Virus record (IMG/VR): IMGVR_UViG_3300000208_000001
Coordinates: 1-62,425 of that record
Length of the DNA: 62,425 nt
DNA from: a virus
Taxonomy: Duplodnaviria; Caudoviricetes
Reading direction: 5' to 3' (one strand)
The notes beneath the pieces were generated by a model. The model worked only from the letters and a program-made list of their open reading frames with translations. It ran no database searches and was not told where the DNA came from. Below, one piece after another: positions 1-62,425 of this stretch. Position 1 is the first letter of the stretch; every line of letters starts with the position of its first letter. Made by a program: the position numbers and the translations under genes.

Positions 1-58
1 CCAACCGTACCCATAGGCGCTGGCTTCTATCGGCTCCCGCCGCTCCCCCAAGTGGGGA
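1..58. repeat. Left copy of 58-bp terminal direct repeat
   Basis: 1-58 matches 62368-62425 at 56/58 positions (differences at repeat positions 39 and 50). Confidence 0.95.
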
Positions 59-123
59 GTATGCCTGCCGGGTTCATCGGGTTGCCCTCCGCCGGTTCCG
101 TTTTCAACGTCCCTTGCAACTCT

Positions 124-152
124 AGAATAACACCCATGGGGTTGTAGGTCAA
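124..152 (-). promoter_or_regulatory. SigA-type promoter likely driving the leftward operon across the genome junction
   Basis: Minus strand TTGACC-17 bp-TATTCT with extended -10 TG, in an AT-rich patch. Confidence 0.6.
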
Positions 153-736
153 TAGGGTTCGAGTGATCTTCTCGAAAAAATTGAGTTTCACGGCGGGGAG
201 CGCCGAACGCGCCCAAACCAGCATCGCAACGGCGTTAGGGCCAAATTGTCGTAATTGCGCGGGGTATTGGTTGTCACAATCGAGTTGGGTATAATGGCCC
301 ACGAGGGCCGTACACGCCCGCGGGCCGACGCCCGGCAGGGCCGCCAGGCGGGCAGAGCGGGCCGATCCGCTCCAGCCCTCCTCCGAGGCGCGGCTGGTGG
401 CACCTGGCCGCGACCACGGACGCCGGGCGACGGCCCGACGTGGACAGGACGCAGCACCCGCGCCCCGTGGACACACCTGCATACCGAGAGGCGGATCACG
501 CACAGCGCCGCGACCCCAGCGTCACTACGGAGACGCGAGGGAGCGCGGCGTTTTCGCGCGTGCGCTGCGACCGGAGGGCAGACGGCGCGACGCGAGCCGC
601 ACCGCCGACAGGAGCGCCAGCGCGAGCCCGGCGGACGCCATACACGCGCGGACGCCGGGCGACGGCACGCGCACGGGGCGGAGCGCCGGAGCCCCGCGCA
701 CGGACGCGGCGGACGAGTGACGCAGGCGACTCGGGA

Positions 737-53360: not shown

Positions 53361-53630
53361 ATGAAGATCAAGGACGTGACGTACAAGAACGACGGCAAAG
53401 TCGAGACGAGGTTGCGGTTTGGGGACAACCTGGCATTGGTCGTTTCGGCTCCGGTGCGAGTCGCCATTGAGGGGGACACATCGGGGCTTGACGAGGAAAA
53501 GTTGAACAAACTGTGCCGGGAACTGGAACAGGGAATTGCGCGCGAGCTCGACTTCCGCCTCTTGGAATTGTGCGTCAAGATAATCCGAGCCGCGGGAGCA
53601 ATCGCAGAGGCGAAGGAGGAGAGCGCGTGA
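53361..53630 (+). CDS. Hypothetical protein
   Basis: AGGAGG RBS. Confidence 0.5.
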   Translation: MKIKDVTYKNDGKVETRLRFGDNLALVVSAPVRVAIEGDTSGLDEEKLNKLCRELEQGIARELDFRLLELCVKIIRAAGAIAEAKEESA

Positions 53631-55489: not shown

Positions 55490-55624
55490 ATGTCCAAGCA
55501 GGAAGCCCTAAAACGCGTCGCCCACGCCCTGGACACAATTCGCTACGGCGAGATCGTCATAAGGGTTCACGATGGACGTGTGATGTACGTCGATAAGATG
55601 GAGCGCGAACGAATACAAAACTGA
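55490..55624 (+). CDS. YezD/DUF2292 family protein
   Basis: LDTIRYGEIVIRVHDGRVMYVDKMERER. Confidence 0.75.
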   Translation: MSKQEALKRVAHALDTIRYGEIVIRVHDGRVMYVDKMERERIQN

Positions 55625-55662
55625 AAACCATCACGATTGATCAAGGCCGACCGAAAAAACGG

Positions 55663-55710
55663 AGGCCGGTTCAAGGTTCGATGTATGTCGAGCCTTGTGC
55701 CGGCCTTTTT
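55663..55710 (+). terminator. Terminator overlapped by an upstream hairpin
   Basis: AGGCCGG..CAAGGTTCGA/TCGAGCCTTG..CCGGCCT followed by TTTT. Confidence 0.65.
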
Positions 55711-55726
55711 CATTCCCCGGGGAGGT

Positions 55727-56086
55727 ATGAGCATGGCACGGATCATGGAACGAGCGCCGGAGCGTTGGAACACAAGTAGTCCGTGGACAGCCTTAGCTCT
55801 CGCGGTTGTGTTTCAAGCCAAGAAGGATGTTCGCTGCGGGGCCAAATTCGCGCGGACACTTCTTTCACGCCACGCGAGTGTTGAGGAAAAAAAGAGGGCG
55901 ATTTCGGGACTGACTTCGTGTCGAGCTGCCAGTGCCGCTGCGTTCTTCGAATCCCGTCTGTGGCGCATGATATGTGGTATGACGGATAGCGGCACGGTGA
56001 TGTTACCTGCGTCGATGGTCCGAGACATGAGAGCGATTAAGCACGCATTGCAGAGGATCGAACGAGACGAGCGAAAGGCGGGCTAG
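55727..56086 (+). CDS. Hypothetical phage protein
   Basis: LALAVVFQAKKD...FFES motif; RBS. Confidence 0.55.
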   Translation: MSMARIMERAPERWNTSSPWTALALAVVFQAKKDVRCGAKFARTLLSRHASVEEKKRAISGLTSCRAASAAAFFESRLWRMICGMTDSGTVMLPASMVRDMRAIKHALQRIERDERKAG

Positions 56087-56089
56087 ACG

Positions 56090-56638
56090 GTGCTCGATGT
56101 GGTTGAGAAACATGTCGCGATGTGGAAGAAAAGCCGGCTGAGTCCGCTATTGCGGGAACTCGCGGTGTCGGTGGTCCGCCGGGCGGCGCAAGGAATGGAT
56201 GACCGGCTCATCTGGATGTACCTCGATCACCGGATGCGCGGCCTCGATCCCGAAAGTGCCGAATGGAAAGCTGTTTTCAACACGAAGATGGCGCTGTTGC
56301 GCGCTGATTCTCGACTGAGCCAGGATGTGCGCCGGATTCGGGAGGAACTCGCGCGGATCGAACTGGAGCGGCAGGCGTCGGGGGACACTGTGCCGCCCCT
56401 GGAGAGGCAGGAAGCGCTGGCGAGGCAGGAAACAGTAGAAAATGGGGCTATGTGGGCTTGGAGGGATGAACTGCGCTACAAGAACAGCCTCATTCCACCG
56501 GGGGCGCGAGGAGGCCGTACCGGTCGCCGGAGGAAGAAGGAGCCGAAACGGGCGCAGATCAGGAGGGCCTACATCGACGCCGTGATGCGGCGGCATGATG
56601 AGGCGATGATGCGGAAGAAGGCGAAGGGGAGAGTTTAA
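56090..56638 (+). CDS. Hypothetical protein
   Basis: 182-aa ORF in operon. Confidence 0.5.
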   Translation: MLDVVEKHVAMWKKSRLSPLLRELAVSVVRRAAQGMDDRLIWMYLDHRMRGLDPESAEWKAVFNTKMALLRADSRLSQDVRRIREELARIELERQASGDTVPPLERQEALARQETVENGAMWAWRDELRYKNSLIPPGARGGRTGRRRKKEPKRAQIRRAYIDAVMRRHDEAMMRKKAKGRV

Positions 56639-56757
56639 TGCGGCAATCATTCGATGTGTTCTTGTGGGTCTTGTTCGCCGTTCTCGTGAGTCTCTCGGCG
56701 GCGCAATTCATCATGCTCGGCTTCTTCCTGTGCAAGCTATTGTTCGGGGAGGTGTAG
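56638..56757 (+). CDS. 39-aa membrane peptide
   Basis: TAATG coupling; hydrophobic. Confidence 0.4.
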   Translation: MRQSFDVFLWVLFAVLVSLSAAQFIMLGFFLCKLLFGEV

Positions 56758-56787
56758 AGAGGCGGACGCGGTAGTCCCGCCTCTCTA
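56755..56787. terminator. Hairpin between convergent transcription units
   Basis: TAGAGAGGCGG/CCGCCTCTCTA. Confidence 0.55.
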
Positions 56788-57744
56788 TACCTTGACCTTG
56801 ATTGCCTCCGCCACGTTGTTTTCGCGCCGGTCCACAATGTGGGCATATCGACTCGTCGTCCGCGGGTTTCTATGTCCAAGCAACTCCTGCACAGCCCGCA
56901 GGTCCCGAGTCGCCGCATAGGCCGCCGTCGCCGCGCTGTGTCGCAAAGCGTGCCCACTCAGCCTGGGCCGCTTCAGCCCCGCCTTCTCCAAGTACCCATC
57001 CACCACCAACCGAATTCCCCGTCTTCCCATGCGCTTCCCTCCGGCCCGGTTCCCCACGGCGACGAAGAGCGGCGTCCCCATGTCGTCCGGCACGACGCGG
57101 CCACGCCTGGCGATGTACTCGTCGAACAGGGCGCGCACGTCCTTACGGAGTTGGATCACCGTATCGTGATACTTCCCATGTACGAGCATCGAGCCATCGG
57201 GCCGTATGTCCTCGACGCTGGCTCTATGTGCTTCGATTTGCCGGCGCGCTTGCAAGCCCAAGAAGGCGAGGAGGGCTAGGTCGCGAAGCGACGCCTCCTT
57301 CCCGTCCCGCGGCACGGCGGCGAGGAGCCGAGCGAGTTCCTCCTCCGAGAGATAGGGGATGTCGTCCTCGGCGGATCGGTCCCGCGGCGGCTTCACGCCC
57401 GCGGCCGGGTTGTCGGTGCGGAGTCCCCGGTCGCGCGCCGCCTCGTAGAACCTGCGTATCACCGTCAGCTTGTGGGCGATGGTGCCGGGCTCGTAGTCCT
57501 GTTCGACGAGGTACTGCCGATATCTCTTGATGTCGTCCTCCGTCGCCCGCGCCGGCTCGACTCCCGCTTCCCGGCACCAGTCGACGTACTGTTCCACCTG
57601 AGAGAAGTAGCCGCGCACGGTATCCTCCGACGCATCGCCGTTGGCTACATCGAGATGGACGAAGACGGCGAAGGCGTCGAGCAGACTGTCGGTGGAAACC
57701 GCCGCTTCTTCGGGTTTTGCAAGTCCGAATAGTCTTGAAGGCAT
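56785..57744 (-). CDS. Tyrosine recombinase (XerC/D-like)
   Basis: SAM-like N-domain, HGK, GHALRHS, VQELLGH..PRTTSRY. Confidence 0.92.
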   Translation of the reverse strand: MPSRLFGLAKPEEAAVSTDSLLDAFAVFVHLDVANGDASEDTVRGYFSQVEQYVDWCREAGVEPARATEDDIKRYRQYLVEQDYEPGTIAHKLTVIRRFYEAARDRGLRTDNPAAGVKPPRDRSAEDDIPYLSEEELARLLAAVPRDGKEASLRDLALLAFLGLQARRQIEAHRASVEDIRPDGSMLVHGKYHDTVIQLRKDVRALFDEYIARRGRVVPDDMGTPLFVAVGNRAGGKRMGRRGIRLVVDGYLEKAGLKRPRLSGHALRHSAATAAYAATRDLRAVQELLGHRNPRTTSRYAHIVDRRENNVAEAIKVKV

Positions 57745-57759
57745 GTCGTTGCCTCCTCT

Positions 57760-57852
57760 CTAACTGAACGCATAACGCAGCGCCGCCGCCACCAACCGGA
57801 ACACGATCACGGCGACGATGGCCTGCACGATGTACGCCCGTATCACCTTCAC
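57760..57852 (-). CDS. 30-aa membrane peptide
   Basis: Coupled GTG start; hydrophobic. Confidence 0.35.
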   Translation of the reverse strand: MKVIRAYIVQAIVAVIVFRLVAAALRYAFS

Positions 57853-58166
57853 GGAGCGCCCGCCTCCTCGCGCTCGACGTGGCGATAGGCGGCGGTCATG
57901 TAGACCTTGTTGGCACTGGTGCCGCGCTCGCCGGCGAGGCGCTTCACGGCTTTGTGAAGGTCGACCGGGAGCCACAGTTTGCGCCGCGTGAGCTTGCCCT
58001 CGTATGTCGGCGTCGGATCGGCCGCGCCGTCTGCGATGTACCGCTCAACGGCGAAGCACAGCTCGCCGGTGAACTCACGCCAGTTGCGCTTCGCCAAGCG
58101 GTCCATGCGGTCGAACAGTTCTTGGGGGAATCGTATATCGAATTGGGTTTGTCCTGGCCTAGTCAC
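57849..58166 (-). CDS. Tandem ribbon-helix-helix regulator
   Basis: QFDIRFPQELFDRMDRLA and KLWLPVDLHKAVKRLAGERGTSAN. Confidence 0.7.
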   Translation of the reverse strand: MTRPGQTQFDIRFPQELFDRMDRLAKRNWREFTGELCFAVERYIADGAADPTPTYEGKLTRRKLWLPVDLHKAVKRLAGERGTSANKVYMTAAYRHVEREEAGAP

Positions 58167-58761
58167 GGGGAACGTCCTTCCGTGCGTCTCTGTTTCTCTC
58201 GTACATGAACACAGAATCATGCAGCCCCCACCATTGAGGAATGCGTACTTCGCGGACGAGCCTCCATCCCGTTTCAATCAAGTCGAAGAAGCGGTCATTC
58301 GCACAACAGCCCCCGCACCATTCGCCGATATAGACGAGTCGTTCTCCACGGTAAGCTAGGAGCGCCCTTTCCGCCATCTCGTCGTCGTATGGCGGCCAGC
58401 ACAGGAATAGTGTGCGGTCACTATGTTCGCTTGCCTTCTCCGGCCCGCCTATGGCAACGGGGAAGTACAGATTCGCATCGCACCATCGGTTCCGACCGGG
58501 CGCAATATCATAGGCGACGAGATCGGCACCTTTGAGTGTGAGCAGATAAGCCCAATAACCAGTTCCCGCACCGATTTCGACTATAGGCGACCATTCAGCA
58601 ATTGCATTAAGCGCCTCATCGTTCGGAATCGCCCATGCGTAGCGTTTCACGAGTTCTCGGCGAGCTGCGAAGGCGTCGATATTCGACGACGGCAAGCGCC
58701 AAGAATCGGCGGATATGATGTCCGGGTCGACCTTGAGCGCCTCCTCAAGCAAGGGGTTCAC
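58159..58761 (-). CDS. Class I SAM-dependent methyltransferase-like protein
   Basis: YAWAIP...IVEIGAGTGYW...LFLCWPPY. Confidence 0.75.
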   Translation of the reverse strand: MNPLLEEALKVDPDIISADSWRLPSSNIDAFAARRELVKRYAWAIPNDEALNAIAEWSPIVEIGAGTGYWAYLLTLKGADLVAYDIAPGRNRWCDANLYFPVAIGGPEKASEHSDRTLFLCWPPYDDEMAERALLAYRGERLVYIGEWCGGCCANDRFFDLIETGWRLVREVRIPQWWGLHDSVFMYERNRDARKDVPRD

Positions 58762-59800
58762 GGCGTTCCTCCTTTCTCGGTTTCACGCTTCGGACGGTCG
58801 GCGCGATGTCATCCAGGTCGCCGACGTTTACCGGGATCGGCGGGAGCCAGTGGAGCACGACGCGGCGTTTCGCCGGTTCGCTCCTCGGCCCCGTCCAATA
58901 GGCGTGCCAATGGGCGCATCGGATATGCGGTCTTGGCGATCTGCGGTCCGTCGTCTCGCCTTCGTCGGACGAACGCCGCCGTTCGTTCTCGGCCCGTCGC
59001 AGCGCCGCCCCAATGCGAAAGCCTGTCTGCCACACCGTGGGCTGATCAGGCGGGAAGATGCGCGGGCCGCGCTTCGTCCGCACAGGACGAGGGTATGTGG
59101 GGCGGCGGTCGCCGATGTACTCGGCCGCCGTCGAACATAGATAGAGCACGAGCGAGACGAGTGGAGTGACATAGGGCACCATTTGGCCAGGGGCGGTGAA
59201 CGCCTCCGGCGGAATCTCCATCCCCGCGCGCTCGGCCTGCCTGTTTGCCTCCTCCGCCATCGCCGCGAGCGATGCGGCGACATCGCCCGACATGTGGAGG
59301 GGGAGCGGTAGAAGGTCATCGAGGTCATCGCCGAAGTCGAGCAGGAAGCGCAGCTCGATCCGCCTGTCGTTCGCATCATGTTCGAGATGGGCGAAGAAGC
59401 CATGTAATGGGTCTGCCCCGAACATGTATCCCGGCGTCTCGATGTAAACGCACCACTCCGGCAGGCGCAGGATAATGTCCACTGGCAGGTCGCCTTCAAC
59501 GGGCGTTCCGCGCAATGCACGGTATAGGTCTGGGTCGAAGCGGTAGATTCCCTGGGTGACACGCCACGCCGCCAGTGCCGCCACTCGGGCGATGTCCTCA
59601 ATTTCGGGATCAAGCGGCGAAAGCATCCGCCCCCGGCTCACGATGGCATATGCGCCAGCCGCAGGAAGGAAACACCACTCGGGCCAGTCCGGGAGTCTCG
59701 TGCCCCGGTCGGCGCGCATCTCGTCGACCAGGCGCCATGCGTCCGGGTAGCGGCGCGACATGGCAATAAGGTGGCGCTTGGGACGGGGGATGTCAGACAC
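58745..59800 (-). CDS. acrVA2: AcrVA2/FinQ-family anti-CRISPR-like protein
   Basis: AWRVTQGIY, LPEWCVY, LYLC, RPHIRCAHWHAYWTG and WLPPIPVN match AcrVA2 family blocks as recalled. Confidence 0.75.
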   Translation of the reverse strand: MSDIPRPKRHLIAMSRRYPDAWRLVDEMRADRGTRLPDWPEWCFLPAAGAYAIVSRGRMLSPLDPEIEDIARVAALAAWRVTQGIYRFDPDLYRALRGTPVEGDLPVDIILRLPEWCVYIETPGYMFGADPLHGFFAHLEHDANDRRIELRFLLDFGDDLDDLLPLPLHMSGDVAASLAAMAEEANRQAERAGMEIPPEAFTAPGQMVPYVTPLVSLVLYLCSTAAEYIGDRRPTYPRPVRTKRGPRIFPPDQPTVWQTGFRIGAALRRAENERRRSSDEGETTDRRSPRPHIRCAHWHAYWTGPRSEPAKRRVVLHWLPPIPVNVGDLDDIAPTVRSVKPRKEERREPLA

Positions 59801-59839
59801 GGGATCACTCCTTCCGTGCCGATCATGCCGAACACAATG

Positions 59840-59890
59840 TCAGTTTTCGTCGGGCATCATCACCGTGATGACGGGCTCTAGGTTGTCACC
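59840..59890 (-). pseudogene. 3' relic of a DUF6573-like gene
   Basis: GDNLEPVITVMMPDEN* with no upstream gene body. Confidence 0.45.
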
Positions 59891-59968
59891 GGTCGATGTG
59901 TCGCGGAGGGTCCGCGGCGTGGTACAATAGCCGAGGACCCTCCGGGTTTCGCAGGCCGTCTCCTCCCC

Positions 59969-60463
59969 TCATGCCGTGAAGCGCCTCACAGCGACGATAC
60001 GCCCCGCGTCGTCGCGGATCGCAGACTCCGGCCCGGTGTCAGGAGCCACCACGTCTACGCGGCCTGAGCCGCGTAGAGCCGCAAGAACGAGCGCGGACAC
60101 GATGTACACGGTATCGCGTTCTGGATCGGGTAACCCCTCGACAGCCCCATACGTCTGTCGGACAGTGGGGACTCCGTGGGGCGTGTCAACGGGTTCTGTA
60201 ACAGTCGTCACCCGAGCGACAGTACCAGACGGCGGCACGGTGAGCTCATAGCCGTCGAATCGAATCGTCACCGCGTGGGGCGTCAGGTTGATGAAGCGGG
60301 TGTACCACCGTGTAATGTGGCTCGCGCCGTCGTCAAACGCCCCCAAACCGCCCTCGTACTCGGCCAGCGGACCGGCGTAGACAACCACCGGCCCGTGATC
60401 CTCGCCATGAGGACCATAAGCGTGGGCCTCGCGAGTCACAACACCATAGCCTTCCAGTTTCAT
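59969..60463 (-). CDS. Conserved phage hypothetical protein
   Basis: INLTPH...PPSGTVARV...GLP...YIVS motif; AGGAGG RBS. Confidence 0.7.
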   Translation of the reverse strand: MKLEGYGVVTREAHAYGPHGEDHGPVVVYAGPLAEYEGGLGAFDDGASHITRWYTRFINLTPHAVTIRFDGYELTVPPSGTVARVTTVTEPVDTPHGVPTVRQTYGAVEGLPDPERDTVYIVSALVLAALRGSGRVDVVAPDTGPESAIRDDAGRIVAVRRFTA

Positions 60464-60507
60464 CGCGCGCACCTCCTGTTGTGTTTGCGCCGCTCTTCGT
60501 CGGTGGC

Positions 60508-61059
60508 TCAGACCTCCACGGGGAGGTCCGGGTCCACCGGCTCGGACTCGGTGGGACGATGATCCTCCGGCCATGAGAACACTGGCCGCCCGTTCTCATC
60601 CCACTCCATGACCACTGGCACCAACCAGGCCGCGTACAAGAGCGGCGATTCCGGCCACTCGGAGCCGATCAAGCCGTAGTCGCGGGCGCACCGCAGGATG
60701 CCGCGCAATAGCGGCAGCGTAGAAGGCACCGGTTCGCACACCCAGTCCGCCCAGGGGCCATCCCAGCCTAGCAGGCTCCCCTCGAACGGACGACCATCGC
60801 GTCCGATGGCCTCCGTGGCTTGCCCCACTGCCTCTTCGGACAGTCCCACAAGCAGGATCTTGCGGTAGTTGGCGGCGACGATGACGCCTTCCGGCGCGAT
60901 CGGCGCGATCTGCTCATATGCCACCCCGCGCCGGGAGGCGTAAGGTGAGCACTGCCGGGACAGCGTCACCTTCACATACCCGTTTGCCAGCACCAAGTCG
61001 GTGCTGGAATTAAGACTTTCCAATGCCCCCTGCAAGTATCGAAAATCCACTTCGCGCAC
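60508..61059 (-). CDS. Hypothetical protein
   Basis: GGAGGGG RBS and GTG start. Confidence 0.55.
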   Translation of the reverse strand: MREVDFRYLQGALESLNSSTDLVLANGYVKVTLSRQCSPYASRRGVAYEQIAPIAPEGVIVAANYRKILLVGLSEEAVGQATEAIGRDGRPFEGSLLGWDGPWADWVCEPVPSTLPLLRGILRCARDYGLIGSEWPESPLLYAAWLVPVVMEWDENGRPVFSWPEDHRPTESEPVDPDLPVEV

Positions 61060-61164
61060 TGACGTCCCCTCCCTGTGGATGTTGTGCCGCTCTTCGCCAC
61101 GCCTGTCGGCGTGCCCACCCCGCGCCACGTGGAGGCGGCGGCTGTGCGGGGCATAACGCGGGGA

Positions 61165-61527
61165 TCACTCCCCGCAGGTATGACCGAACCGCTCCCGCAG
61201 GAACTCTGCGACGGCCCGCGGCGTCCACTCGGACGGATCGGAAGCGCCAGGGCCAATAGCGCGCTCCAGGTCGTCGGCAACCATCTCGAACCGGGCGCCA
61301 CAGTAGGCGCACCACAGCGGGCGGCGCACCATGTGCCACCCGTGGCGGATCACGGCTTCAGCCATTTCGTCCAACTCCTCCTGCGTCAGTGAGCACTCAC
61401 CGAACATCGCCTCGATGTTCTCGACCGTGAAATATGCGCGCACCTGCGCTTCCGACTGGAACAGATCGCCCGCATCGAAATTGGTGGCCTCGTGAATCCG
61501 CTCCCGCGTCCATGCCATGTGTGTCAT
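61165..61527 (-). CDS. Small acidic hypothetical protein
   Basis: GAGGAGG RBS. Confidence 0.65.
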   Translation of the reverse strand: MTHMAWTRERIHEATNFDAGDLFQSEAQVRAYFTVENIEAMFGECSLTQEELDEMAEAVIRHGWHMVRRPLWCAYCGARFEMVADDLERAIGPGASDPSEWTPRAVAEFLRERFGHTCGE

Positions 61528-61566
61528 CCTCCTCTGCCGCTCCCGGCGGCGTGGTGTGTGCGGTCT

Positions 61567-61626
61567 CCCGCGACCCTGGCGATGCCAGGGTTTCGGCCGC
61601 GGACCAGGCGGCCATCGTCAGGCGGG
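61567..61626 (-). ncRNA. Type I hammerhead ribozyme
   Basis: Minus strand CCCGC-CUGACGA-U-GGCCGC(CUGGUCC)GCGGCC-GAAAC-CCUGGC(AUC)GCCAGG-GUC^GCGGG: complete core and three fully paired stems. Confidence 0.9.
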
Positions 61627-61830
61627 CTGCAGGTCGATCAAATGCGCTACCTGCTCGATCCTGCACAGGTAGCGCCCGCACCTCCGGCCCTTGTTGGGGC
61701 CGGCAACTTCGACCACGTTCGTAACCGGCGCCCAATACACGTCGCCGTTCGGGTAGGCGAAAACCTCCATCCTGCCCCCTTCGAGACTCTCGCTGTACCC
61801 GAGGTGACCCAGGGACTTTTGGGTGTGCAT
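61618..61830 (-). CDS. 70-aa hypothetical protein
   Basis: AGGAGG RBS; its stop codon is the UGA of the ribozyme core. Confidence 0.65.
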   Translation of the reverse strand: MHTQKSLGHLGYSESLEGGRMEVFAYPNGDVYWAPVTNVVEVAGPNKGRRCGRYLCRIEQVAHLIDLQPA

Positions 61831-61964
61831 GTTGGCATCCTCCTTTTCGTGTACCTGTATTCGGGCTGCGCCCTTGAGCGTAGCGGGGGAGGGGATGGAC
61901 CTCCCCCGGCCCAGACCTTCCCAGGGCTGTACCTAGCGGACGTATTCGAGGACCGGCGGACTCG

Positions 61965-62210
61965 TCAGGCGGGGGCGGGCACGGCGGGTCCGACGAGGTA
62001 CCATCCGTGCCGGGTCTCGGCGACCATCGCGGTGTCGATCCATGCCAGAGCGTGCATCGCCCGGATCGCCGCCGTCAGTATGGCATCATCCTCCGCAGTG
62101 TGTCGATGCCGCCGCCCGAGGATGTGCTCGACATGCGCCCAGGTGAGCTGCACTGCCTCATGCTCGATCCCTCGATGGTCTGTGTACGTCGTCGTGAGCA
62201 GGTCGCTCAT
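61965..62210 (-). CDS. 81-aa hypothetical protein
   Basis: GAGGAGG RBS. Confidence 0.65.
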   Translation of the reverse strand: MSDLLTTTYTDHRGIEHEAVQLTWAHVEHILGRRHRHTAEDDAILTAAIRAMHALAWIDTAMVAETRHGWYLVGPAVPAPA

Positions 62211-62226
62211 CGTGTATCCTCCTCTC

Positions 62227-62280
62227 GGGTTTCGGCGGCCTTACCGCCATCATCAGCAGGGCTGTAGCTCCCTGGACCCC
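62227..62280 (-). ncRNA. Type III hammerhead ribozyme
   Basis: Minus strand GGGGUC^CAGGG(AGCUACAG)CCCUG-CUGAUGA-U-GGCGG(UAAGG)CCGCC-GAAACCC. Confidence 0.85.
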
Positions 62281-62367
62281 TAGCGCCTACTCTCTGACTC
62301 GGCCCGTCCACCGGCTCCCGCTCCCGCTCACATCGGTCTCCATGCGATCTCCGCCCGGTGCGCTCCG

Positions 62368-62425
62368 CCAACCGTACCCATAGGCGCTGGCTTCTATCGG
62401 CTCCCCCCGCTCCCCCCAGTGGGGA
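62368..62425. repeat. Right copy of 58-bp terminal direct repeat
   Basis: Matches 1-58 with 2 mismatches; suggests a circular or circularly permuted complete genome. Confidence 0.95.

Follow-up and report, generated by a model that had tools for sequence, protein, structure and literature searches.

Two different hammerhead motifs bracket a pair of small genes in the leftward operon of a phage genome and may segment its transcript

Results

A leftward operon carries two hammerhead motifs

The stretch of DNA analyzed here, hereafter called the window, is the whole of the IMG/VR record IMGVR_UViG_3300000208_000001 (62,425 nt; Duplodnaviria, Caudoviricetes), which is classed as linear. Its large open reading frames (ORFs) lie nearly all on the plus strand, and minus-strand coding is confined to positions 56785-62425, where the GC skew also becomes negative. 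This leftward block carries two different hammerhead ribozyme motifs on its coding strand, which enclose two small ORFs; a homologue of the anti-CRISPR protein AcrVA2 lies further downstream and a tyrosine integrase gene closes the block (Table 1). An earlier reading of the letters of this DNA, referred to below as the original prediction, had placed two different hammerheads on the coding strand of one leftward operon with cuts after positions 62275 and 61572, and this part is borne out by a structural descriptor, by covariance models and by covariation.

Both strands of the window were scanned with a descriptor comprising the core CUGANGA, zero to one extra nucleotide, a stem II hairpin, GAAA, and stems I and III. 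Exactly two matches were obtained, both on the minus strand, and none was found in 100 dinucleotide-preserving shuffles of the window. A descriptor for type II hammerheads had no match in the window. The motif that a leftward transcript would meet first (hammerhead 1) is of type III and the second (hammerhead 2) is of type I, with stems I, II and III of 5, 6 and 4 bp and of 5, 6 and 8 bp, respectively; the predicted cuts lie at a distance of 703 nt. Each site shows CUGAYGA, GAAA and GUC at the cut, the sole departure in the core being an extra U between A9 and G10.1. In hammerhead 2, the letters GGUC of loop II (61605-61602) pair with the tail GACC (61565-61562), forming a pseudoknot of 4 bp at columns that covary in the class described below, while in hammerhead 1 just 2-3 Watson-Crick pairs are possible between loops I and II. 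The hammerhead fold of hammerhead 1 has an energy of -21.8 kcal/mol, 0.2 from the local minimum of -22.0, and that of hammerhead 2 has an energy of -35.1 kcal/mol, 1.3 from the local minimum of -36.4. Minimum-energy folding of longer stretches yields other folds, the hammerhead fold being near-optimal (within about 1 kcal/mol) on tighter stretches.

Two other strings of the minus strand resemble parts of a hammerhead. The string at 53424-53467, which sits opposite plus-strand genes, is a weak partial match to our type I covariance model (10.5 bits, E 0.45), with stem II, GAAA and stem III and without a CUGANGA core. The string at about 59928-59955, in the stretch separating the 201-aa ORF from the AcrVA2 homologue, consists of GAAA, a short hairpin and UC, and resembles the 3' half of a hammerhead; it has no CUGANGA core and neither covariance model matches it.

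Table 1. Features of the leftward block and of the genome ends, in window coordinates.
Feature	Position	Strand	Remarks
Terminal overlap	1..58	.	Copy of 62368-62425, 97%
Predicted sigma-70-like promoter of the leftward operon	124..152	-	TTGACC, 17 nt, TATTCT with TG; reads across the circular junction into 62425
Leader, 3' part (would be removed by hammerhead 1)	62276..62425	-	Extends upstream into window 59 to ~117; whole leader ~210 nt
Hammerhead 1, type III (open at stem III)	62227..62279	-	Predicted cut after C62275; CUGAUGA + extra U, GAAA, GUC site
81-aa ORF, orphan, led by a ribosome-binding site (RBS)	61965..62210	-	GC1/2/3 0.71/0.49/0.79, resembling integrase
Truncated third hammerhead (relic)	61951..61973	-	5' strand of stem I, CUGACGA core, 5' half of stem II; 10.4 bits, E 0.5
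70-aa ORF, orphan, RBS-led	61618..61830	-	GC1/2/3 0.62/0.42/0.83; TGA stop inside CUGACGA core of hammerhead 2
Hammerhead 2, type I (open at stem I)	61562..61626	-	Predicted cut after C61572; CUGACGA core; includes 3' tail GACC
120-aa ORF, first gene of the predicted distal RNA piece	61165..61527	-	Probably starts at second ATG (MAWTR); no family assigned
206-aa ORF	60508..61128	-	No family assigned; 61% identity in L127
ORF of up to 201 aa	59969..60574	-	PHROG families without named function (phrog_30542, E 8e-27)
AcrVA2-family homologue, 351 aa	58745..59800	-	PDB 7ci1 E 3.6e-18, query residues 70-328; phrog_6160 E 3e-54
200-aa ORF, weakly methyltransferase-like	58159..58761	-	Methyltransf_23 E 0.0019, 18.4 bits vs cut-off 27; phrog_19090, without named function
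Arc-like/ribbon-helix-helix (RHH) protein, 142 aa	57849..58277	-	Arc-like/RHH PHROGs, E 1e-4 to 4e-5
Tyrosine integrase, last gene of the leftward block	56785..57744	-	PF00589 E 2.4e-22; phrog_1 E 1.9e-38

Both motifs belong to a phage class with an extra U in the core

A comparison with the Rfam hammerhead models, recommended together with the original prediction, came back empty: the models of Rfam 15 report neither site, whether the whole window is searched at the gathering score or 61300-62425 at E<=10. As a control, the gathering score was applied to eight viral loci (L015, L035, L041, L047, L056, L074, L101 and L108), which hold 31 type I or type III and 3 type II hammerheads by descriptor; a single one of these 34, a type II, was found. 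Since Rfam misses nearly all of these control phage hammerheads, it has little power for the class, and its silence on the window points to a weakness of the library rather than to counter-evidence.

To look for further members, viral contigs were searched with a partial pattern in which 20 bases are specified: core plus extra U, base of stem II, and GAAACC. At least 115 stretches were recovered, and the counts given below for 115 listed loci rest on these. In 107 of the 115 stretches listed, the flanking letters supply what the descriptor needs for a full hammerhead. Among the matches listed there are 151 descriptor hits, which divide into 120 type I with the extra U, 13 type I without it, 12 type III with it and 6 type III without it; the extra U is present in 132 of the 151, a share that is biased, as the search pattern required it. 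A stricter, exact pattern recovered 66 stretches (L129-L194) of species-representative genomes, which by their titles are mostly Clostridia, Paenibacillus and other Bacillota, those from outside the Bacillota being three Amycolatopsis and one Synergistaceae. These taxa hint at the host range of the class.

Covariance models were built from 58 type I and from 16 type III examples, the window being left out of both. Hammerhead 2 scored 67.3 bits against the type I model (E 9e-20), ranking 17th among 125 matches in 100 sources, and the best unrelated match scored 12.3 bits. Hammerhead 1 scored 42.4 bits against the type III model (E 1.6e-10), with a best background match of 12.7 bits. Over 114 distinct type I sequences, in an alignment that was fitted to the model and hence leans towards the structure, 95.4% of cells were paired versus 72.6% after shuffling, compensatory changes on both sides were seen at 14 of the 17 pairs, and the covariation score was 0.505 versus 0.123 (0/500 shuffles as high; slid controls <=0.081). 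The pseudoknot of the class, in which loop II pairs with the 4-5 nt that follow stem I, behaved likewise (77.8% paired versus 55.7%; covariation 0.313 versus 0.094; 0/500 shuffles as high; slid controls <=0.074). Taken together, these results indicate, by sequence, fold and comparison, that the two minus-strand motifs are genuine hammerheads, for which self-cleavage is predicted, and place both of them in a class abundant in phages and marked by an extra U after A9.

An extra nucleotide at this place has a natural precedent. According to the available part of one study (PMC1636495), which cites De la Pena and Flores (2001), the (+) hammerhead of Chrysanthemum chlorotic mottle viroid carries an extra A10 between A9 and G10.1, the same place in the core, and tolerates it with a moderately lowered rate. 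In contrast to the viroid, the extra nucleotide of the window is U and not A, the ribozymes are those of a DNA phage, and the insertion marks a whole class.

The bracketed genes are small orphans

Between the two cuts lie exactly two small ORFs, of 81 and 70 aa, each preceded by a GGAGGA-type Shine-Dalgarno sequence. The claim that a segment of about 703 nt holds two RBS-led ORFs of these sizes is therefore upheld by the ORFs themselves, by their Shine-Dalgarno sequences and by their base composition: both share the codon-position GC pattern of the integrase and of the AcrVA2 homologue, a pattern that the leader lacks. Neither protein has a Pfam or PHROG family or a usable Atlas match, and their structural neighbours (TM 0.32-0.54) name no family. 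A search of viral contigs for relatives of the 81-aa ORF returned one weak locus, L003 (39% over 31 residues), which has no hammerheads.

A truncated third hammerhead starts in the stop codon of the 81-aa ORF. The possibility that the core TGA regularly serves as the stop codon of the upstream gene was considered and rejected as a rule, the excess being modest (40 of 126 cases among the class loci listed, versus 28 and 23 in the other frames).

A related contig keeps both hammerheads around unrelated genes

No match to 56785-62425 was obtained by megablast against GenBank phages, and no relative of the 120-aa ORF that follows hammerhead 2 was found in viral contigs. A metagenome scan with this ORF recovered the window's own contig and three relatives, L126, L127 and L128, with 86%, 80% and 75% amino-acid identity, respectively. 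In L126, positions 477-535 form a type III hammerhead (51.0 bits) and positions 1131-1198 one of type I (65.7 bits), about 700 nt apart. Relative to the window, its hammerhead 1 shows five compensatory pairs, three in stem I and two in stem II, and an identical loop I, which hints at a non-canonical contact; its hammerhead 2 has three pairs of stem III changed on both sides. No letter of the cores or of the pseudoknot differs between the two contigs.

Nucleotide homology between the window and L126 in the hammerhead region is restricted to 62424->62218 (88%) and 61627->61087 (87%). It is lost 9 nt past hammerhead 1 and found again from 1 nt ahead of hammerhead 2, so that promoter, leader and both hammerheads are kept while the intervening 590 nt (window 62217-61628 versus L126 541-1129) are unrelated. 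The cargo of L126 consists of two different small proteins, of 91 and 90 aa, which have no similarity to the window pair and no PHROG family. In L128, a type I hammerhead (70.1 bits) is found elsewhere and a relative of the 81-aa ORF (48%) stands in another position.

Variants of the locus were looked for in four sequencing runs, all in the form of contigs, from which RNA ends, strand and level are unreadable; the stretches that the RNA libraries leave uncovered, including both hammerheads, are uninformative. In a contig of the DNA run X1, 61575-61951 is replaced by 23 other letters and the 70-aa ORF is gone, the breakpoints at 61951 and 61575 both falling inside hammerheads. When read by hand, the 23 letters complete the relic (61973-61951) to an intact type I hammerhead without the extra U, which uses the last nucleotides of hammerhead 2. 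A second X1 contig joins 61627 to 62227 (shorter side 30; the letters between the sides are not known), a joint which fits a cargo swap of the kind seen in L126. The joints 57488/61594 and 57941/60510, which have a side of 21 letters, were disregarded because they probably come from other organisms. Contigs identical to the window over the 70-aa ORF, part of the 81-aa ORF and the 206/201-aa ORFs are present in two metatranscriptome libraries; they are weak backing for transcription, DNA carry-over being possible, and carry no information on RNA ends.

The genome ends join in front of the leftward block

The first 58 nt of the window repeat its last 58, and L126 bridges the two ends without a break (L126 2-390 corresponds to window 376->2 and L126 337-540 to window 62424->62218). 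The end overlap and the bridging contig indicate that the genome is circular or circularly permuted despite its class in the record, and the minus-strand block at the right end therefore continues into the left end. There, the predicted leftward promoter of the window is kept in L126 as TTGACA-17-TATTAT. Past the junction lie a small-terminase-like gene and a ParB/methyltransferase gene.

The leader region, which is 88% identical to L126 337-540, has a codon-position GC pattern unlike that of a gene. It holds a conserved Shine-Dalgarno sequence and an ATG at window 75-77 (minus strand), whose frame in the window runs for 16 codons only. In L126 (about 313-825), which differs from the window by a 1-nt indel, the same frame meets no stop in the hammerhead and runs on as far as the next ORF. 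Upstream of the leftward promoter there is a degenerate hammerhead-like string, at L126 27-90 (mutated core CUAACGA, 11.5 bits) and at window ~300-376 (minus strand), where no minus-strand gene precedes it. Terminator prediction on the minus strand of 55500-62425 returned none.

The distal genes include an AcrVA2 homologue and an integrase

The AcrVA2-like gene announced by the original prediction is confirmed. The 351-aa protein is homologous to AcrVA2 (PDB 7ci1/7ci2) over about 260 residues, the match being to chain A of 7ci1. Its identity to AcrVA2 is low and the homology is one of sequence only; we regard it as a true AcrVA2 homologue whose anti-CRISPR (anti-Cas12a) activity is putative. 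Its relatives in GenBank phages occur in very diverse phages and are all annotated as hypothetical protein. Among the two other genes that had been named downstream, the RHH regulator holds, while the methyltransferase-like gene reaches a sub-threshold match only. The tyrosine integrase had gone unnamed.

A tie between the hammerheads and counter-defence, also proposed at the outset, fared poorly. None of six viral loci with AcrVA2 homologues has a hammerhead, and none of the 115 listed hammerhead loci has an AcrVA2 homologue within the stretch fetched. Hammerheads and AcrVA2 homologues are not linked in general, and the link to counter-defence is weak.

Hammerhead arrays are found in other phages

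Among 107 hammerhead-bearing locus-strands of the 115 loci listed, 26 have two to six hammerheads, which never occur on both strands of a locus. Neighbouring hammerheads in these other phages have a median spacing of 690 nt (44 spacings), against 703 nt in the window. The 68 ORFs found between them are short, with a median of 88 aa, and nearly all lack an assigned function; matches were to 19 PHROG families, of which a single one has a name (anti-restriction protein), and to three Pfam domains of unknown function.

In L047, L074, L056, L108, L035 and L101, four to six hammerheads form an array on a single strand, with spacings of 170-980 nt. Most type I members of these arrays share stem I (CCCGC/GCGGG), so pairing would be possible between the 5' end of an excised piece and the ribozyme located at the 3' end of the same piece. 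The array of L101 consists of three type II and two type III hammerheads.

Discussion

We consider it likely that co-transcriptional hammerhead cutting segments, or insulates, the polycistronic leftward mRNA of this temperate phage. The leftward block would be transcribed from the sigma-70-like promoter at window 152-124, across the circular junction, and both hammerheads would cut the transcript during its synthesis. The type III hammerhead 1 would remove the leader of about 210 nt, and the type I hammerhead 2 would split a two-gene mRNA of 703 nt from a distal mRNA running from the 120-aa ORF through the AcrVA2 homologue to the integrase. With type III first and type I second, the middle piece would keep both ribozyme bodies: a folded hammerhead with a 5'-OH at its 5' end, and a folded hammerhead with a 2',3'-cyclic phosphate at its 3' end. 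The distal piece would have a 5'-OH at its start, some 45 nt upstream of the first start codon. In this way each piece would receive a fixed end, and its stability and translation would be freed from the influence of the upstream sequence. Self-processing into separate pieces was already part of the original prediction and stands as the natural reading, one that has likewise been proposed for prophage clusters in the available part of an earlier study (PMC3088659); the circular mRNA that was to result from it is unsupported.

Several points weigh against this interpretation. The first is the silence of the Rfam models, which the control assigns to the library. A second concerns what is read directly from the DNA, namely motifs, fold, conservation, covariation and gene layout, as distinct from cleavage, co-transcription of the whole block and an effect on stability, which we infer from them. 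Whether a 5'-OH would stabilise or destabilise an RNA depends on the RNases of the host. Hammerhead 1, with a stem III of 4 bp and no convincing Watson-Crick contact between loops I and II, could be slow. The AcrVA2 homologue may have its own promoter in the 168-nt gap before the gene, although none is predicted there. Finally, L127 has the 120-aa ORF (80%) without any hammerhead in the 826 nt upstream, and the ribozyme is therefore not required for that gene.

The exchange of cargo seen in L126 raises the question of whether the hammerheads act as boundaries of a cassette. Hammerheads belonging to the backbone would delimit an exchangeable gene slot; cuts on both sides would allow the cargo to be expressed independently of its context, and the ribozyme DNA, of 60 nt, may aid recombination by providing homology. 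This role, which would add to the segmentation of the transcript without excluding it, is possible in our view, though on the unlikely side. It is favoured by L126, with the same promoter, leader and two hammerheads around unrelated cargo, by the X1 contig that has lost the 70-aa ORF at breakpoints inside hammerheads, by the X1 joint between 61627 and 62227, and by the small size of the ORFs between hammerheads in other phages and their almost general lack of assigned function. Homology breakpoints point the same way: of 803 internal breakpoints over the 115 listed loci, 81 are no more than 10 nt away from a hammerhead, versus 9.9 +/- 3.2 for random positions. Homology with a partner locus ends at 39 of 59 informative hammerhead sites versus 125 of 438 other same-strand ORF junctions, a comparison in which the junctions were called crudely and the sites within a family are not independent. 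However, a single family, with 43 loci, accounts for the excess (36 of 42 sites), and when hammerheads and other junctions are compared in six families, hammerheads are higher in one, lower in two and tied in three, which leaves that family and the window's own as the basis of the idea. Accessory genes also turn over fast beside any conserved element, and a breakpoint at a selected RNA motif need not be caused by the motif.

A stronger version makes the ribozyme DNA itself the seam of the swap, the backbone pair of ribozymes insulating whatever cargo is exchanged, and in its boldest form takes an excised RNA circle as the intermediate. This version, which draws on the window's own family (L126 and the X1 variant) and on the large unrelated family of 43 loci, we consider unlikely.

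It is very unlikely that the hammerheads are decaying passengers, that is, inactive or irrelevant remnants carried along with shuffled DNA. The truncated relic after the 81-aa ORF and the lack of a hammerhead before the 120-aa ORF in L127 are what such decay would leave, but both complete hammerheads have a perfect core and compensatory changes in L126, and hammerhead 2 retains the pseudoknot of its class.

Most improbable of all is that the 703-nt piece is joined, by a host RtcB-type ligase or by reversal of the ribozyme, into a translatable circle. In its favour, the end chemistry of hammerhead products suits RtcB-type ligases, the last five letters of the 3' product (GGGUC) are the substrate strand of hammerhead 1, so that pairing is possible in principle, and retrozymes form circles of similar size, as reported in the available parts of two studies (PMC7229834, PMC5680766). 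Against it, the window has two hammerheads of different type and sequence, whereas retrozymes and viroids repeat one ribozyme. The 3' end of the piece is tied up in stem III of the type I ribozyme, a hairpin of 8 bp, and the minimum-energy fold of the 703-nt product has no pairing of its first 40 with its last 60 nt (summed pair probability there 1.8). Joining by RtcB would depend on the host having such a ligase. Going by the part of their 2011 paper available to us (PMC3088659), Perreault et al. searched clusters of this kind for circular or spliced products and detected none.

For the segmentation of the leftward transcript, the locus offers a clean and compact case, with one promoter and two different ribozymes that are conserved with compensatory changes. 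The AcrVA2 homologue and the integrase would be on the distal piece and the two bracketed genes on a separate one, which makes the locus suited to testing whether cutting sets how much early accessory genes yield relative to lysogeny genes. Beyond this phage, an abundant class of phage hammerheads, many with an extra U after A9, is missed by Rfam 15. The exchange of cargo while the ribozymes stay in place, as in the window's family, suggests a modular role that can be surveyed computationally.

Hammerheads near phage genes have a history. In the available part of Perreault et al. (2011, PMC3088659), bacterial hammerheads are described by the hundred, many of them near prophage integrases, and clustered hammerheads, with types I, II and III mixed, are described as flanking one gene or a short block of genes in prophages, three tandem arrangements having cleaved in vitro and one in vivo. 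One prophage set, the triple arrangement of Agrobacterium tumefaciens, flanks the anti-restriction gene ardA. The same part of that paper proposes that long transcripts are processed to gene-length mRNAs and raises circular or spliced products as an alternative (PMC3088659). The role of many phage and prophage hammerheads is still called open in the available parts of two reviews (PMC6765202, PMC6155905). Our literature search, which was of limited coverage, found no paper linking hammerheads with anti-CRISPR genes, nor with mosaicism or cassettes.

The window resembles the clusters of Perreault et al. as they appear in that part of the paper (PMC3088659): hammerheads of mixed types lie close together on one strand around a gene block, with an integrase and a counter-defence gene nearby. 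It differs from them in that the neighbour is an AcrVA2 homologue and not ardA, and stands outside the bracketed segment; in that type III precedes type I, the predicted middle RNA keeping both ribozyme bodies; and in the extra U after A9, which the available part of that paper does not mention. Phage genes bracketed by hammerheads were thus already described in 2011, and what is new here is L126, with unrelated cargo between the same two hammerheads.

A second likeness is to retrozymes and viroid-like circular RNAs, in which a unit of 600-1000 nt lies between two hammerhead cuts that leave ligatable ends, as would be the case in the window. In those RNAs the same ribozyme is repeated and is rebuilt by the joined ends, the unit is non-coding and forms an end-paired rod, and reverse transcription or RNA replication is needed. 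In contrast, the window has two different ribozymes around a unit that holds two protein-coding genes and for which prediction gives no pairing of the ends.

A functional parallel is offered by synthetic insulators such as RiboJ, where a hammerhead placed before the RBS trims the leader and frees expression from the promoter context. RiboJ is an engineered element, whereas the hammerheads of the window would play such an insulating role naturally.

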